DNA from: Parcubacteria group bacterium Greene0416_39
GTDB taxonomy: Bacteria > Patescibacteriota > Minisyncoccia > Minisyncoccales > UBA10102
Direction: 5' to 3'
Length of the DNA stretch: 64,000 bases
Assembly: GCA_007375675.1 (NCBI GenBank)
Contig: VMEU01000001.1
Coordinates: forward strand, 40,458 to 104,457
Below the pieces are notes generated by a model. The model was not told the DNA's origin and ran no database searches. It saw only the letters and a program-made list of their open reading frames with translations. Positions 4,951 to 53,029 of the stretch are shown here, piece after piece (within the stretch, counting starts at the first letter, position 1; each line of letters starts with the position of its first letter). Both the position numbers and the translations under genes were made by a program.

Positions 4951-5313
4951 ATGAAGACTATCTTGTTTATTGAAGACGAACAAGCTCTCCAGAAAACCGC
5001 CGGAGATACGCTGCGCGAAGCTGGGTTTGAGGTGATCTCGGCCTTGGACGGAGAGATCGGGCTCCGCCTTGCCAAAGACAAGAACCCAGATCTTGTTATC
5101 CTTGACTTGGTGCTTCCCAAGCTGGATGGATTTGAAGTGCTGAAAGCGTTCAAGGAAACGCAAGAAACCTCGCACATTCCTGTCATGGTTTTGACAAACC
5201 TTGAGGGTATAGAGGATATCCAAAAAGTGCTTAGCTTGGGAGCAACTACGTATTTGGTAAAAGCAAATTACACGTTGGCTGAGCTCGTAGAAAAAGTGAA
5301 AAGTGTTTTGTAG
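4951..5313 (+). CDS. Single-domain response regulator (CheY-like receiver)
   Basis: 120 aa; DLVILDLVLPKLDGFEVL; phospho-acceptor Asp context; conserved K near C-terminus. Confidence 0.85.
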   Translation: MKTILFIEDEQALQKTAGDTLREAGFEVISALDGEIGLRLAKDKNPDLVILDLVLPKLDGFEVLKAFKETQETSHIPVMVLTNLEGIEDIQKVLSLGATTYLVKANYTLAELVEKVKSVL

Positions 5314-24667: not shown

Positions 24668-25876
24668 ATGAAGACAGTCAAGTCTTTTGTAAAAGAATCT
24701 CTTGAGTATTCATTTTTTGGGACGCAAAGGTTCGCCATTGAAGCGCTCACGAAAACTCAGTCTCAGCAATGGCACAGGTTTGATATTTTGCGCAGGCTGA
24801 GCCTGAACCTTATTTTCCTTGGAATTTACGGATTCATCGTATGGCAGACATTCCAAGGGAAATTTACCTTAGGAGAAATGACCCTGCTCATTCAGCTTGC
24901 AACACAAACGCAGTTTCCCTTGTTTGCCTCCTCCTTTATTGTTGAACAAGTTCAAAAAGCTCAAACAGGGAGTAAAGACTTTTTTGAAACTCTCGCGTTA
25001 GAGCCTGCCATTAAAGACAGACCTAAGGCAAAAGAGCTGCAGGTTGTGAAGGGCAAAGTGGAGTATCAAAACGTGTCATTTCAATACGAAAAGGGCGCAA
25101 CAGTTTTGCAGAGAATATCTTTTGCCATACCTCCTGGAACAAAGCTCGCTTTGGTAGGAGAAAGCGGAGAAGGGAAAACCACCATCGCAAACCTTCTCCT
25201 GCGCTTGTACGAGCCCTTTGAGGGCGAGATCCTTATTGACGGCATGAATATTAAAGAAGTAACCCAATCCTCTCTGCGAAAGAATATTGCGGTTGTATTT
25301 CAATCTCCCTCTTTATTTTCAGGCACTGTCCGAGAAAGTATTGCGTATGGCACAGACGAGGCAATAGAAGACAAGATCGTGCGCGCCGCAAAAGCGGCAA
25401 ATGCCCACGACTTTATCATGAAGCTTCCTCAAGGGTATGACACCTTGATTGGAGAACGGGGAGTAAAGCTGTCAGGAGGGCAGCAGCAAAGAGTCGCCAT
25501 TGCAAGAGCAGTGTTGAAAAACGCCCCACTATTGATTCTGGACGAAGCAACAAGTTCTTTGGACAGCAGGTCAGAGAGAGAAGTCCAAGGAGCATTGGAA
25601 GTGTTGATGCAGGGCCGCACCACTCTTATTATCGCGCACCGCCTCTCAACCATTCAAAACGTAGACACTATTGTTACCCTCAAAGAGGGGAGGGTAGATG
25701 AAATAGGAACGCCCGGGGAGTTGGCCTCAACAAAGGGCATTTACGCGCAACTGCTTTCGCTCCAGCAAATGCCTTTGCTTTTGAGGAAACAAAAACTCAA
25801 GCAGTACGACATTGAGAGCGGGCCGCCCTCGCCCAAAGGGCGGGGCGAGCCTCGCTCAAATTTCGCAGAAATTTGA
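24668..25876 (+). CDS. ABC transporter ATP-binding protein with only a partial transmembrane domain (N-terminally truncated type I exporter)
   Basis: Walker A GESGEGKTT; signature LSGGQQQRVAIARA; Walker B ILDEATSSLD; H-loop. Only ~130 aa (2 TM) precede the NBD. Confidence 0.75.
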   Translation: MKTVKSFVKESLEYSFFGTQRFAIEALTKTQSQQWHRFDILRRLSLNLIFLGIYGFIVWQTFQGKFTLGEMTLLIQLATQTQFPLFASSFIVEQVQKAQTGSKDFFETLALEPAIKDRPKAKELQVVKGKVEYQNVSFQYEKGATVLQRISFAIPPGTKLALVGESGEGKTTIANLLLRLYEPFEGEILIDGMNIKEVTQSSLRKNIAVVFQSPSLFSGTVRESIAYGTDEAIEDKIVRAAKAANAHDFIMKLPQGYDTLIGERGVKLSGGQQQRVAIARAVLKNAPLLILDEATSSLDSRSEREVQGALEVLMQGRTTLIIAHRLSTIQNVDTIVTLKEGRVDEIGTPGELASTKGIYAQLLSLQQMPLLLRKQKLKQYDIESGPPSPKGRGEPRSNFAEI

Positions 25877-25946
25877 GCGGGTGATGGGAATCGAACCCAC
25901 GTGCCTTGATTGGCAACCAAGTGTACTGCCATTGTACTACACCCGC
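25876..25946 (-). tRNA. tRNA-Gly(GCC)
   Basis: Acceptor GCGGGTG/CACCCGC; D-stem GTAC/GTAC; anticodon stem CTTGG/TCAAG, loop TTGCCAA; T-arm GTGGG-TTCGATT-CCCAT. Confidence 0.75.
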
Positions 25947-25969
25947 ACTTCGGCCTTCTGGCCTCAGTG

Positions 25970-26251
25970 TGCCGCGGGGGTGAATTGAACACCCGACGCC
26001 AGCCTCTTCCAAAGGCCGTTTTGGACTATCTCATCTCCCTTGAAAGGGAGTTGGGCGCTATTTGCAGGATTATTGTTGGGACTCACCCGCTAGTCTCTAC
26101 ACCTTCCGAGAAACTACTACCCTTCTCGGCTTGGCTCGGGATTGATCGTCCCAGACGATTTTTCCCCGAATTCACCCAATTTTTCAATCCGCCTTACGAC
26201 GGAAAGCCCCAAAGAGTTTAGGGCTGCGCTCTACCACTGAGCTACCGCGGC
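25970..26251 (-). tRNA. tRNA-Phe(GAA) interrupted by a 210-nt group I intron (exons 26220-26251 and 25970-26009)
   Basis: 5' exon GCCGCGGTAGCTCAGTGGTAGAGCGCAGCCCT; 3' exon GAAGAGGCTGGCGTCGGGTGTTCAATTCACCCCCGCGGCA. Joined, the anticodon loop is CTGAAGA. Confidence 0.8.
26010..26219 (-). mobile_element. Group I self-splicing intron in the tRNA-Phe anticodon loop (between nt 33 and 34)
   Basis: P1 pairs exon AGCCCU with intron GGGGCU, with U.G at the 5' splice site. P/Q/R/S-like elements AATTCGGGGAAA, AATCCCGAGC, GTGTAGAGACTAGCG, GAGATAGTCC. Terminal omega-G. No ORF inside. Confidence 0.8.
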
Positions 26252-26261
26252 ATCTGACAGT

Positions 26262-26960
26262 TTATGCAAAGAGCTGCTTTATGCCCTCTATCCATCCCAT
26301 AATCCGGTGGAAATTCTGTGTATCTCCTACACTAATCTGAATTGTCCCAAATGGCAAGCGGTTGTAAGGTCTTTTCCCCAAGCTCGATTTACTAATTCCG
26401 TAGTAAACTTTCTCAAATTGATTTTTAGGTAACCCAGTAATCTCTTGCCAATATTTTAATGCTGTTTGTTCGTTAGTATGTTTAAATATTCTTACGCCTG
26501 CTCTTACTCTAGATTCGGGTATTTTTAAGATGTTCTTTAAAAACTCTAGGAATACTTTAACCAGTATAGGGTCTGTATTACTTAAACTAATCTTATGGTA
26601 GGTACGCTCTTTTCCATTTTTGATTATTGGCTTTTTATATCCTTCTCCCCAGTAAAGCGCAGTTCCTATTAATAAAAGTTCTCTTTGCGACAGTTTTTTG
26701 ATTACTAACTTTGCATCTTTGCGTATTTGTTTTGCTTGCTGTTGGGCTAAGTGAGTTTGAAGTTGATTTTTCTTTATTAATCCTCTTAGAGATCCTTCGT
26801 GAACCCGCCGCTGAATTCTCGCATGAGCTTTTTCTGATAAAACAAGTCCGGTAAACCAGCCCGAAAGCGTAGCTTTCGGAATTCCAAGCTTGGTTGTAAT
26901 CTCGTTATAGCTATACCCCTGAAGACGTAGCGAGAGCGCCTTTTCCTTATCACTGCGCAT
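26262..26960 (-). CDS. HTH + LAGLIDADG-like protein; possible free-standing homing endonuclease
   Basis: 232 aa; N-terminal HTH YSYNEITTKLGIPKATLSGWF; LLLIGTALYWGEGYK resembles a LAGLIDADG motif. Lies 10 nt upstream of, and co-oriented with, the intron-containing tRNA-Phe. Confidence 0.4.
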   Translation of the reverse strand: MRSDKEKALSLRLQGYSYNEITTKLGIPKATLSGWFTGLVLSEKAHARIQRRVHEGSLRGLIKKNQLQTHLAQQQAKQIRKDAKLVIKKLSQRELLLIGTALYWGEGYKKPIIKNGKERTYHKISLSNTDPILVKVFLEFLKNILKIPESRVRAGVRIFKHTNEQTALKYWQEITGLPKNQFEKVYYGISKSSLGKRPYNRLPFGTIQISVGDTQNFHRIMGWIEGIKQLFA

Positions 26961-26991
26961 TACATATACTATAGCACAGCCAGTTCAGGTT

Positions 26992-27447
26992 TCAATATGG
27001 ATAACCCTGGAAGTAGTATTGCACCGCTTCCTTATAGGTATTTTCAAACTCTATACTATCAACTTCTTCTTTTGTTATCCACTTGAAAGCCTGATGTTCC
27101 GGGCTCAGCTGTATTTCTCCTTTTTGATAAGCACATTGAAAACCTACAAGGAAAATACAAAAATCGTTATCCCTGTACTGTGATTTTGTATCTTTAATAG
27201 GGTCAGGTTTTCGAATCCACGCGTGAAAGATTGGGCCAATTTCGTATTGCAGCGCCTCCCCTAATTCTTCTTTTGCTTCCCGCGCCAAGATTTCCCGCAA
27301 ATCTTTATGGATTTCTGATTTTTCCGTTCTGCCCCCAGGGAGCTCCCAAAGCCCTTCAGTATCTTGAAGGATCAAAAGTTTCTCGCCGTCTGCTATAAAG
27401 GCTTTCAGGCCGACATGGAAGGTTTGGTGTTCCCGTTTTTCTGGCAT
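26992..27447 (-). CDS. NUDIX hydrolase
   Basis: Nudix box GGRTEKSEIHKDLREILAREAKEELG. Confidence 0.8.
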   Translation of the reverse strand: MPEKREHQTFHVGLKAFIADGEKLLILQDTEGLWELPGGRTEKSEIHKDLREILAREAKEELGEALQYEIGPIFHAWIRKPDPIKDTKSQYRDNDFCIFLVGFQCAYQKGEIQLSPEHQAFKWITKEEVDSIEFENTYKEAVQYYFQGYPY

Positions 27448-51617: not shown

Positions 51618-51829
51618 TGTCCCCATGTGGAATCGAACCACAATTTTAGCCTTCGCCCCGCACCGTTTCTGTGCGTCCACGAGGAATCGAACCTCGATTT
51701 CAGCCTTCGCAGGGCTGCGCTCTATCCGTTGAGCTATGAACGCATAAAGGTGCGGGGCAGGCAGGGCTATTTACCCCGTACCGAGCTTTGCTCTGGTACG
51801 GGGCGCTCTATCCGTTGAGCTATGGGGAC
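51618..51829 (-). tRNA. Split/outer tRNA-like gene: acceptor + D-arm + 5' anticodon stem (51797-51829) and 3' anticodon stem + T-arm + acceptor (51618-51660) separated by ~140 nt that contain a complete tRNA
   Basis: 5' part GTCCCCATAGCTCAACGGATAGAGCGCCCCG; 3' part CGGGGCGAAGGCTAAAATTGTGGTTCGATTCCACATGGGGACA. Acceptor halves GTCCCCA/TGGGGAC and anticodon-stem halves CCCCG/CGGGG are perfectly complementary. The 5' part resembles the tRNA-Arg genes at 14772 and 15868. Confidence 0.45.
51672..51743 (-). tRNA. tRNA-Arg(GCG) (unusual anticodon), nested inside the split tRNA-like gene
   Basis: Acceptor GCGTTCA/TGGACGC; D-arm GCTC-AACGGATA-GAGC; anticodon stem CAGCC/GGCTG, loop CTGCGAA; T-arm CGAGG-TTCGATT-CCTCG. 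Confidence 0.65.
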
Positions 51830-51901
51830 GTACATTTTTTATAGCATACAACGCGACCCGTTGGTATAGGCAAGTTTGTATGCTTGTGATAGTATGGAGG
51901 T

Positions 51902-52906
51902 ATGGCTGAAATGGTAAATTCTAAAAGGGCAAAGTTCCCTAGAGGGCTACAAAGAAGGTTCATTCAGAAAGTTCTCATAAACCTTTCTTTTGAGAAAGTC
52001 GCAGGTCTTTGTGGAGTTTCTCAGCGTACCATAAGAGATTGGCGCCGCGAAAAGTTTTTAATGGATTTTAGTGCCGTCAAGGTATTATGCAACAGAGCAA
52101 AGCTGCCATTCCCGCAACATATCAAGCTCAAGGATCGTTATTGGTATACTTCAAAAGGAGCCAAGTATGGCTGGAGTTTGGTGCTCAAAAAATATGGGAG
52201 GATTCCTTTAGATGAAGAGTATCGTAAAGAGAAATGGTATGAATGGTGGGAACGGGAGGGAAGGTATAAAAGGCATCCTATCATAAACGTTTCCAAACCA
52301 ATCCGAAAACCCGCTTTTTCCAAGGAGCTTGCCGAATTTGTAGGTATTGTGTTAGGTGATGGTGGCATAAGTAAAAGGCAGATTACGGTATCTTTACACA
52401 GTATCGATGACAAAGAATATTCACATTATGTTTCTGCATTAATCAAAAAGCTTTTCCTTGTTCCTGTTTCAATTCGTCCAGATAAAAACGCTAAAGTTGT
52501 AGATCTTGTTATTTCTCGTACGGAGTTGATACGTTTCTGTACCCAGACATTAGGCTTACGAATCGGCAACAAAGTAAAACAGCAAGTAGATGTTCCTCAT
52601 TGGATTAAACACAATAAGAGCTATATTCTTGCCTGCACCAGGGGACTTGTTGATACCGATGGTTCCGTATATCTTCACAGATACAAGGTAAATGGGAAGT
52701 GGTATACGTATTCAAAACTTTCGTTTTCTAATCGTTCCATGCCACTTCTTCAGTTTGTGCTTTGTACCTTTAAAACGCTTGGCATGAATCCTCGTTTAAC
52801 CAAGTATAACGAGGCCGTACGTTTAGAAAGTAAAAACGACATGAAATCATATTTTGGTTTAATAGGAACTCATAACCCGAAATATTTGAAGAAATACAGG
52901 AATTAG
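51902..52906 (+). CDS. Free-standing LAGLIDADG homing endonuclease (two motifs)
   Basis: FVGIVLGDGGISKRQ and ACTRGLVDTDGSVYLH LAGLIDADG motifs; 334 aa; divergent from the nested tRNA locus 70 nt away. Confidence 0.75.
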   Translation: MAEMVNSKRAKFPRGLQRRFIQKVLINLSFEKVAGLCGVSQRTIRDWRREKFLMDFSAVKVLCNRAKLPFPQHIKLKDRYWYTSKGAKYGWSLVLKKYGRIPLDEEYRKEKWYEWWEREGRYKRHPIINVSKPIRKPAFSKELAEFVGIVLGDGGISKRQITVSLHSIDDKEYSHYVSALIKKLFLVPVSIRPDKNAKVVDLVISRTELIRFCTQTLGLRIGNKVKQQVDVPHWIKHNKSYILACTRGLVDTDGSVYLHRYKVNGKWYTYSKLSFSNRSMPLLQFVLCTFKTLGMNPRLTKYNEAVRLESKNDMKSYFGLIGTHNPKYLKKYRN

Positions 52907-52924
52907 GATATAATTAGATATAAG

Positions 52925-53012
52925 GGAGGAGTCGCATAGTTGGCCTATTGCGGCACTTTGCTAATGTGCTTGGGGAGAAATCCCCTCGTGGGTTCGAATC
53001 CCACCTCCTCCG
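52925..53012 (+). tRNA. tRNA-Ser(GCT), class II
   Basis: Acceptor GGAGGAG/CTCCTCC; anticodon loop TTGCTAA (31-39 U.U); variable hairpin GGGGAGAAATCCCC; T-arm GTGGG-TTCGAAT-CCCAC. Confidence 0.7.
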
Positions 53013-53029
53013 CAGCAAATGAAATACGT

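Follow-up and report, generated by a model that had tools for sequence, protein, structure and literature searches.

A stretch of 64,000 nucleotides (nt) from Parcubacteria group bacterium Greene0416_39 (contig VMEU01000001.1), hereafter the window, carries two open reading frames (ORFs), ORF1 and ORF2, that were originally predicted to be free-standing LAGLIDADG endonuclease genes beside intron-bearing or disrupted transfer RNA (tRNA) genes. Which role do such genes play at these sites: do they serve the introns, are they leftovers of them, or are they tied to the tRNA genes as such? Both ORFs are indeed free-standing: they lie outside introns and inteins, and a promoter-like site immediately precedes the ATG of each. 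The answer that we favour, with moderate confidence, is that they belong to large families of free-standing helix-turn-helix (HTH)-LAGLIDADG homing-endonuclease genes of the Patescibacteria (Candidate Phyla Radiation, CPR), the niche of which is the position directly 5′ of a tRNA gene within tRNA clusters. What is observed at these loci is the gene structure, the fold of ORF1, the conservation of its active site, the position of the ORFs, an embedded promoter, and protein clades that track the partner tRNA.

ORF1 encodes a genuine LAGLIDADG protein (domains and coordinates in Table 1). Pfam LAGLIDADG_3 matches it with 33.2 bits (cut-off 22.5; E = 6.6e-8), LAGLIDADG_2 gives a weaker match at the first motif, and the PADLOC HEase (homing-endonuclease) model matches residues 146-332 (E = 1.3e-4). 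The AlphaFold2 (AF2) model, with a predicted local distance difference test score (pLDDT) of 84.6 overall and above 89 over residues 140-320, shows two alpha-beta-beta-alpha-beta-beta-alpha halves that follow a three-helix HTH and a linker. When this model was used as a Foldseek query, the best match was I-Tsp061I (E = 6e-10; template modelling score on the target, 0.74), and about 100 further LAGLIDADG structures were retrieved, including I-DmoI, I-AniI and PI-SceI; WhiA appeared at ranks 13, 21 and 33. The three helices of the HTH are short, and within it R42, T43, D46 and W47 are invariant among relatives. D153 and D253, together with the surrounding glycines, are invariant in 79/79 relatives, which indicates that the nuclease active site is maintained in the ORF1 family, unlike in WhiA. 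Single-sequence searches of the PDB with the ORF1 and the ORF2 proteins found nothing. Relatives of ORF1, annotated in the databases as LAGLIDADG, account for 1,358 matches in a clustered protein collection, and at least 560 GTDB species representatives encode one.

For the genomic context of this family we fetched the 80 best-scoring loci, from 80 species, 74 of which include enough downstream sequence to be assessed; for ORF2, the 80 best-scoring metagenomic loci were fetched, 75 of them assessable. As the best-scoring loci of each family were sampled, intact copies are favoured and decayed ones under-sampled. Loci are referred to below by their L-numbers. A co-oriented tRNA-Ser gene follows the ORF1 relative in 73/74 loci, at a median distance of 17 nt past the stop codon. 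Its anticodon is mostly GCT, at times TGA or CGA, and introns are absent from all of these tRNA-Ser partners. The window conforms to this pattern: the conserved partner of ORF1 is the tRNA-Ser(GCT) gene behind it, which the original prediction had left out.

The end of ORF1 and the tRNA-Ser gene are further connected by a promoter, the best one of the region. Its −35 box lies in codons 329-330 of ORF1, the ORF1 stop codon falls in the spacer, and its 3′ end is placed by the promoter scan 10 nt before the tRNA. Among relatives, the codon for Leu329 is TTG in 52 of 64 sequences, compared with 21.6% at seven other conserved leucine columns (p = 5e-24), and a TAnnnT hexamer is found 16-17 nt past this TTG, mostly 9-15 nt before the tRNA. 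Taken together, the codon bias and the spacing of the hexamer indicate that ORF1 harbours the −35 box of the tRNA-Ser promoter within its coding sequence. At the other end of the gene, the promoter-like site of the window is below the threshold of the region-wide promoter scan; among the 31 relatives with a good promoter match, 25 show the same geometry. In both families a consensus-like promoter precedes the gene, with the 3′ end of its −10 box located 6-8 nt before the ATG, implying leaderless mRNAs. The six bases between the −10 box and the ATG of ORF1 relatives read GGAGAT or GGAGGT, a Shine-Dalgarno-like sequence that is too near the ATG. This compact architecture, consisting of a leaderless ORF, a tRNA promoter laid over its end and the tRNA, is found across many candidate phyla. 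At six loci (L050, L053, L056, L057, L073 and L075) the ORF1 stop codon even lies inside the first ~20 nt of tRNA-Ser(TGA); RNase P cleavage of a read-through transcript would then cut off the stop codon and yield a non-stop mRNA, an overlap that could act as a built-in brake on nuclease expression.

The ORF2 protein is related to this type of protein less evidently. Its HTH is recognised in the family rather than in the window protein: HTH_23 matches 56 of 64 relatives (best E = 1e-19), and the family profile matches the PAI subdomain of Sleeping Beauty (E = 7.6e-5). E106 and G107 of the LAGLIDADG-like motif are invariant in 64 sequences of the family, down to 25% identity. The only nuclease matched by the 64-relative profile is I-DmoI, at its second motif (E = 0.006-0.016); LYWaEGsK of the profile aligns on LYVAEGDK of I-DmoI, so that E106 falls on the catalytic E117. 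When the C-terminal domain was compared with the second domain of ORF1 by hhalign, a match was obtained (P = 0.01) that aligns a beta-hairpin (IKNGKERTYHKISLSN / KVNGKWYTYSKLSFSN), helix 2, strand 3 and helix 3; with the whole profiles of the two families, the HTH alone was matched. Some ORF2 relatives are tandem fusions of two full copies, of 530-560 residues. Tandem fusion is the usual route by which dimeric LAGLIDADG enzymes become monomeric, and the fusions are consistent with a dimeric ancestor turning into a single-chain enzyme. Proteins P0317, P0319, P0332, P0337, P0342 and P0372 (424-576 residues) likewise each contain two or three stretches that match the ORF2 profile, and in P0337 and P0342 the HTH matches lie apart as well; this pattern suggests that all six are two-copy fusions. 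Altogether, the profile retrieves 4,876 clusters at 50% identity (E < 0.001), mostly annotated as 'HTH' or 'hypothetical'. All named sources of both families are Patescibacteria/CPR, and proteins identical to ORF1 and ORF2 of the window are on record from Parcubacteria metagenome-assembled genomes.

As for the position of ORF2 relatives, a co-oriented tRNA begins no more than 47 nt past the stop codon in 58 of the 80 loci, and four more loci are cut by the contig end inside the tRNA; adjacency to a tRNA gene amounts to ~62/75 assessable loci. The partners are intron-bearing tRNA-Phe(GAA) (~27 loci), intron-less tRNA-Phe (14), tRNA-Gly(GCC) (19) and tRNA-Pro(TGG) (3-4), the last two being without intron in every case. 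Most of the remainder, about eight loci, have an intron-bearing tRNA-Phe on the other side of the ORF, upstream or divergent. Further ORF2 paralogs on the same contigs precede tRNA-Phe, tRNA-Arg(TCT), tRNA-Ile(TAT) and tRNA-Val(GAC). In the window, where tRNAs and introns were called with ARAGORN (including its intron mode) and Rfam, the intron-bearing tRNA-Phe(GAA), with its 5′ end at 26251, begins 10 nt past the stop codon of ORF2, and the next gene, tRNA-Gly(GCC), serves in other genomes as the partner of a different clade of the family. The geometry of the ORF2 promoter is conserved in relatives. Since the scan of the window found neither a terminator downstream of this promoter nor a promoter before tRNA-Phe, ORF2, tRNA-Phe and tRNA-Gly are probably co-transcribed there. 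A −35 box embedded at the 3′ end of ORF2 was also considered, and was dropped upon finding weak codon evidence and no promoter before the tRNA-Phe of the window.

Table 1. Features of the ORF1 and ORF2 loci, in window coordinates.
Feature	Coordinates	Strand	Remarks
ORF1, 334 amino acids (aa): N-terminal HTH, linker and two-motif (monomeric) LAGLIDADG nuclease domain	51902..52906	+	
ORF1 HTH region, aa 19-53	51956..52060	+	Sub-threshold Pfam HTH_23, HTH_17 and MerR; AF2 model
ORF1 first LAGLIDADG helix and motif (ELAEFVGIVLGDGGIS), putative catalytic D153	52322..52369	+	
ORF1 second LAGLIDADG helix and motif (ILACTRGLVDTDGSVYL), putative catalytic D253	52616..52669	+	
Weak promoter-like site of ORF1, TAGGCA-17-TAGTAT	51867..51895	+	−10 box ends 6 nt before ATG
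Sigma-70-type promoter of tRNA-Ser, TTGAAG-17-TATAAT	52886..52914	+	10/12 consensus matches
tRNA-Ser(GCT), downstream partner of ORF1, co-oriented, 18 nt after ORF1 stop	52925..53013	+	
tRNA-Arg(GCG) with two insertions, one carrying a second complete tRNA-Arg(GCG) at 51671-51743	51618..51829	-	Divergent from ORF1
ORF2, 232 aa: N-terminal HTH, long helix and single LAGLIDADG-like C-terminal domain	26262..26960	-	
ORF2 HTH, aa 5-38	26847..26948	-	Sub-threshold in window protein
ORF2 LAGLIDADG-like helix and motif (RELLLIGTALYWGEGYK), invariant E106 and G107	26634..26687	-	Aligned to I-DmoI LYVAEGDK
ORF2 promoter TTGAAA-16-TGcTATAGT, extended −10, 10/12 matches	26968..26995	-	−10 box ends 7 nt before ATG
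tRNA-Phe(GAA), interrupted in the anticodon loop by a group I intron; downstream partner of ORF2	25969..26251	-	
Group I intron	26000..26229	-	Rfam RF00028, 64.6 bits
tRNA-Gly(GCC), next gene of the ORF2/tRNA-Phe cluster	25875..25946	-	

The original prediction had to reckon with relatives of the ORFs lying in unrelated contexts; what we found is that the tRNA-adjacent positions of both are conserved, with adjacency recurring in more than 130 independent loci. Proportions of 73/74 and ~62/75 are far beyond what chance would give. The protein trees of both families are structured by the partner tRNA, with few switches, which occur among tRNA-Ser isoacceptors. Within a cluster, the slot occupied can change: in the ORF1 family the order ORF-Ser(GCT)-Ser(TGA) is found as well as Ser(GCT)-ORF-Ser(TGA), and in the ORF2 family the order ORF-Phe-Gly of the window has a counterpart in Phe-ORF-Gly (L116), both slots being occupied in L105. 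The latter two loci, 92% identical in nucleotide sequence over the shared ORF, provide one clear case of presence and absence between close relatives, since a copy between tRNA-Val and tRNA-Phe is found in L105 only. Occupancy is also patchy within the window, in which tRNA-Ser(TGA), tRNA-Ser(CGA), tRNA-Pro(TGG) and tRNA-Gly(GCC) are not preceded by an ORF of either family, and no further member of either family was found.

Traces of movement were sought in the flanking sequences. In L053 a 23-nt 5′ fragment of tRNA-Ser(TGA) (2947-2969) abuts the promoter of the cassette, and a complete, different tRNA-Ser(TGA) follows the ORF; in L105 the extra ORF ends at a 15-nt 5′ fragment (2832-2846) identical to the tRNA-Phe of L116. 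L003 carries a truncated 15-nt tRNA 5′ fragment (5194-5208) located 36 nt upstream of an intact tRNA-Ser(TGA). These fragments may be scars of insertion or replacement at tRNA genes. A search for such 5′-fragment footprints upstream of every cassette was negative, bar L053 and overlaps with real tRNAs. We also compared the genes with their hosts by setting pairwise ORF1 identities against those of the linked RecG, and obtained a weak correlation (Spearman 0.37). L018 and L059, for instance, have the ORF in the same slot and RecG proteins that are 75% identical, while their ORF1 proteins share 46.6% identity and the neighbouring tRNAs only 72-78%; this discordance is suggestive of replacement, without proving it.

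On this evidence, the intact putative nuclease site joined to an HTH, the strict placement, the site-tracking clades, the slot changes, the candidate scars and the patchy occupancy are best accounted for by homing endonucleases specialised on tRNA genes. In genomes that are free of the cassette, the protein would recognise a long target sequence that lies within the partner tRNA gene or shortly before it, with the HTH adding DNA contacts and with ORF1 acting as a monomer and ORF2 as a homodimer. Upon cleavage of this site, recombinational repair from a cassette-bearing copy would insert the ORF there and, probably, the tRNA next to it as well. As the flanking tRNA genes are conserved, they would offer both a near-universal target and homology arms for the repair. 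The ORF1 cassette should in addition resist deletion, since its last codons contain the −35 box of the tRNA-Ser promoter; ORF2 may persist by being placed between a strong promoter and tRNA-Phe/tRNA-Gly, with which it would be co-transcribed.

Several points weigh against this interpretation. With respect to ORF2, Pfam searches with the window protein and with sets of 33 and 64 relatives gave no LAGLIDADG match among the families listed, and a Foldseek search of its model against the PDB was negative and did not confirm a LAGLIDADG fold; the assignment is probable, on marginal statistics. The LAGLIDADG label of the original prediction, for which a Pfam search had been proposed as a check, is consequently well founded for ORF1, by Pfam score and by Foldseek, and weakly for ORF2. 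Nor do the last codons of ORF2 support an embedded −35 box (ATT bias p = 0.007; GAA not enriched). Scars in the form of tRNA fragments occur in just 2 of 160 loci, and the phage searches found no phage relatives of either family, so that no transfer vector is evident. Conservation of ORF1 is high, with a mean pairwise identity of 49.7% (53.9% for RecG), and an in-frame stop codon is found in just one of ~156 copies; together these two observations fit selection at the level of the host as well as they fit ongoing homing. Cleavage, the target site and homing are, moreover, predictions from sequence.

These points bear on the main rival explanation, which we regard as somewhat unlikely: the HTH-LAGLIDADG proteins would have been domesticated as host-beneficial DNA-binding factors specific for tRNA genes, for example regulators of tRNA promoters, inherited mostly vertically and under purifying selection. 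WhiA is a precedent, being a domesticated LAGLIDADG-HTH transcription factor with a C-terminal HTH and with its catalytic residues lost. ORF1 resembles it in combining a LAGLIDADG scaffold with an HTH and in structure, both families have an HTH, and RecG-like conservation, the near absence of pseudogenes and the fixed compact arrangement of leaderless ORF, promoter and tRNA across many candidate phyla would all be expected of a host factor. However, the HTH of ORF1 is N-terminal, the protein falls outside the WhiA type, and the catalytic acidic residues that WhiA has lost are strictly conserved. Mostly vertical inheritance also sits poorly with the patchy distribution, many tRNA genes of the same type being without an ORF in the window and elsewhere, with the slot changes and the presence or absence between close relatives, and with the weak congruence with RecG. 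The original prediction had offered a further possibility, that the ORFs are leftovers of intron gain and loss; this is unlikely, because they are intact and their degree of conservation is about that of RecG. To attribute their position to chance, as decaying remnants of mobile elements devoid of current activity or function, is very improbable. The window is dense in tRNAs (19 genes in 64 kb) and some ORFs will neighbour one anyway, but chance does not explain the recurrence of the adjacency at so many independent loci, nor full-length ORFs with intact motifs, each with a consensus-like promoter of its own.

Service to the introns is the remaining alternative, and we hold it to be quite unlikely as the main role. 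ORF2 would mainly serve the group I intron of tRNA-Phe, as a trans-acting homing enzyme directed at the site of intron insertion or as a splicing maturase, and ORF1 would act likewise on the disrupted tRNA-Arg. The arrangement in the window, with ORF2 preceding a tRNA-Phe whose group I intron lacks an ORF, is repeated in relatives and corresponds to the layout of collaborative or trans homing, known from F-CphI with the psbA intron of cyanophages and from mobE with the nrdB intron of T4 (PMC3984707, PMC2790892, PMC6083498); it differs in that the host gene is a tRNA, the enzyme is of another family, and the partner lacks an intron in half of the ORF2 family. The role of intron helper that the original prediction had suggested for ORF2 is compatible with the ~27/80 loci in which an intron-bearing tRNA-Phe lies downstream, but not with the intron-less tRNA-Phe, tRNA-Gly and tRNA-Pro partners, from which it follows that the intron is dispensable and that the ORF2 family is not an intron-specific helper. 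Paralogs standing before tRNA-Arg, tRNA-Ile and tRNA-Val point the same way, as do introns in tRNA-Phe genes that have no ORF2 relative directly before them. The 14 intron-less tRNA-Phe partners also argue that a target coinciding with the intron insertion site, by which the intron would confer immunity, is not the general rule. A comparison of the anticodon loops of intron-bearing and intron-less tRNA-Phe gave no informative difference. As to ORF1, its tRNA-Ser partners are intron-less, and its relatives flank a normal tRNA-Arg or none.

The tie between ORF1 and the nested tRNA-Arg that had been proposed is thus incidental, and we rejected a functional link. A distance of 72 nt separates the start of the ORF from the 5′ end of the outer tRNA-Arg(GCG), at 51829. 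A tRNA-Arg(GCG) on the opposite strand upstream is confined to the ORF1 clade of the window, and in relatives with the same recG / tRNA-Arg / ORF1 synteny it is normal and single, with recG behind it; other relatives of ORF1 lack a tRNA-Arg in this flank. Colinearity with the intact tRNA-Arg of L008 marks the outer tRNA-Arg of the window as an ortholog that gained two insertions, and the neighbourhood of ORF1 and tRNA-Arg represents inherited synteny rather than a functional connection.

How do homing endonucleases specialised on tRNA genes compare with known systems? To our knowledge, free-standing LAGLIDADG genes are rare in bacteria, and we know of homing endonucleases described in CPR so far only inside rRNA introns. 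The closest parallel is the 'intronless homing' of phage T4, where free-standing nuclease genes also stand among tRNA genes: segB is flanked by tRNA-Arg and tRNA-Ile, and its product, SegB, targets the tRNA region. The seg and mob genes move by cleavage of the cassette-free allele followed by co-conversion. As in ORF1, promoters of downstream genes, which in T4 are essential genes, are embedded in the nuclease ORFs, an arrangement considered to hinder deletion and so to favour retention of the nuclease gene (PMC2988022). The T4 enzymes, however, are GIY-YIG or HNH nucleases of a phage, whereas the families described here are LAGLIDADG or LAGLIDADG-like, reside in cellular chromosomes, are known from sequence, and fill the same slot in hundreds of species, with clades that specialise on a single tRNA. 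The LAGLIDADG enzymes of CPR rRNA introns, such as I-ShaI, are mostly single-domain dimers encoded in group I introns of 16S and 23S genes, and their clades track the insertion site and not the host (PMC11270868), a line of reasoning that we have applied here in the same way. They share with the ORF1 and ORF2 families the phylum, the superfamily and the site-tracking clades; ORF1 and ORF2 differ in being free-standing, in their N-terminal HTH and in flanking tRNA genes, and that study mentions neither tRNA loci nor free-standing genes. I-DmoI and I-Tsp061I, which provide the best profile match of ORF2 and the best structural match of ORF1 and share with them the acidic residue in which the motif helix ends, are archaeal enzymes encoded in rRNA introns, without an HTH extension and with less than 20% identity. 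According to a brief remark in one paper, group I introns are often present in CPR tRNAs (PMC8172020), and our literature search found no description of an association between HTH-LAGLIDADG genes and tRNA genes.

Our best reading is that the general type, free-standing homing endonucleases with intronless or collaborative homing, is known, and that the apparent specialisation on tRNA genes is new. The data point to nucleases living in tRNA clusters that are selfish, or possibly domesticated, and that form a class hardly described so far. Two conserved families are locked on the 5′ side of specific tRNA genes, the ORF1 family with at least 560 species representatives and the ORF2 family as part of a superfamily of ~4,900 clusters at 50% identity, and the wider value lies in this scale, in the regularity of the arrangement and in the testable predictions that follow. 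Should the enzymes be active, gene conversion in ultra-small bacteria would have a so far unrecognised arena in tRNA clusters; the mobility of ORF-less tRNA introns and the scars of tRNA genes would have a source, many new nucleases that recognise long sites and have their natural targets in tRNA genes would become available, and a very large unannotated protein family would gain a function and a fold. A bolder version, which we consider unlikely, takes the promoter, the leaderless nuclease ORF and the tRNA as a self-propagating cassette, by which individual tRNA genes throughout the phylum would each have a nuclease gene of their own and resident tRNA alleles would be overwritten, a tRNA gene drive, or else sees the nucleases as recruited to control or maintain tRNA loci. 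A gene drive, if true, would explain truncated or nested tRNA scars, among them the disrupted tRNA-Arg of the window.

The structure of that tRNA-Arg is peculiar in itself. The first insertion is a hairpin with a 9-bp stem between the D-arm and the anticodon stem. The second lies in the anticodon loop, where complementary arms (CCCCGCACC/GGTGCGGGG) enclose the second complete tRNA-Arg(GCG). Processing of this inner tRNA would leave two outer halves joined by the CCCCGCACC/GGTGCGGGG stem, in the manner of a split tRNA.

Some further observations concern single loci. In L083 (971-2461), L112 and L113, an ORF2 relative and its intron-bearing tRNA-Phe directly follow the 16S rRNA gene and tRNA-Ile, which places these ORFs inside or beside the spacer of the rRNA operon. 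The only copy with an in-frame stop codon, L115 75-764, is a full-length ORF2 relative beside an intron-bearing tRNA and may be a pseudogene or a sequencing error. L118 and L121 are 95% identical over the 869 nt of the ORF and tRNA-Phe, and the 3 kb after the tRNA share no similarity; either a breakpoint lies right after the tRNA or the ORF-tRNA unit was transferred. At many loci, finally, exact direct copies of 14 nt of a tRNA 3′ end (14 being the k-mer length of the repeat scan) are found 130-250 nt downstream of that tRNA, as in L003 (4097-4110), L102 (2467-2480), L110 (4084-4097), L116 (2834-2847), L124 (2144-2157) and L149 (4102-4115). Such copies have the look of repeats bordering a small element that uses the 3′ ends of tRNAs for integration.

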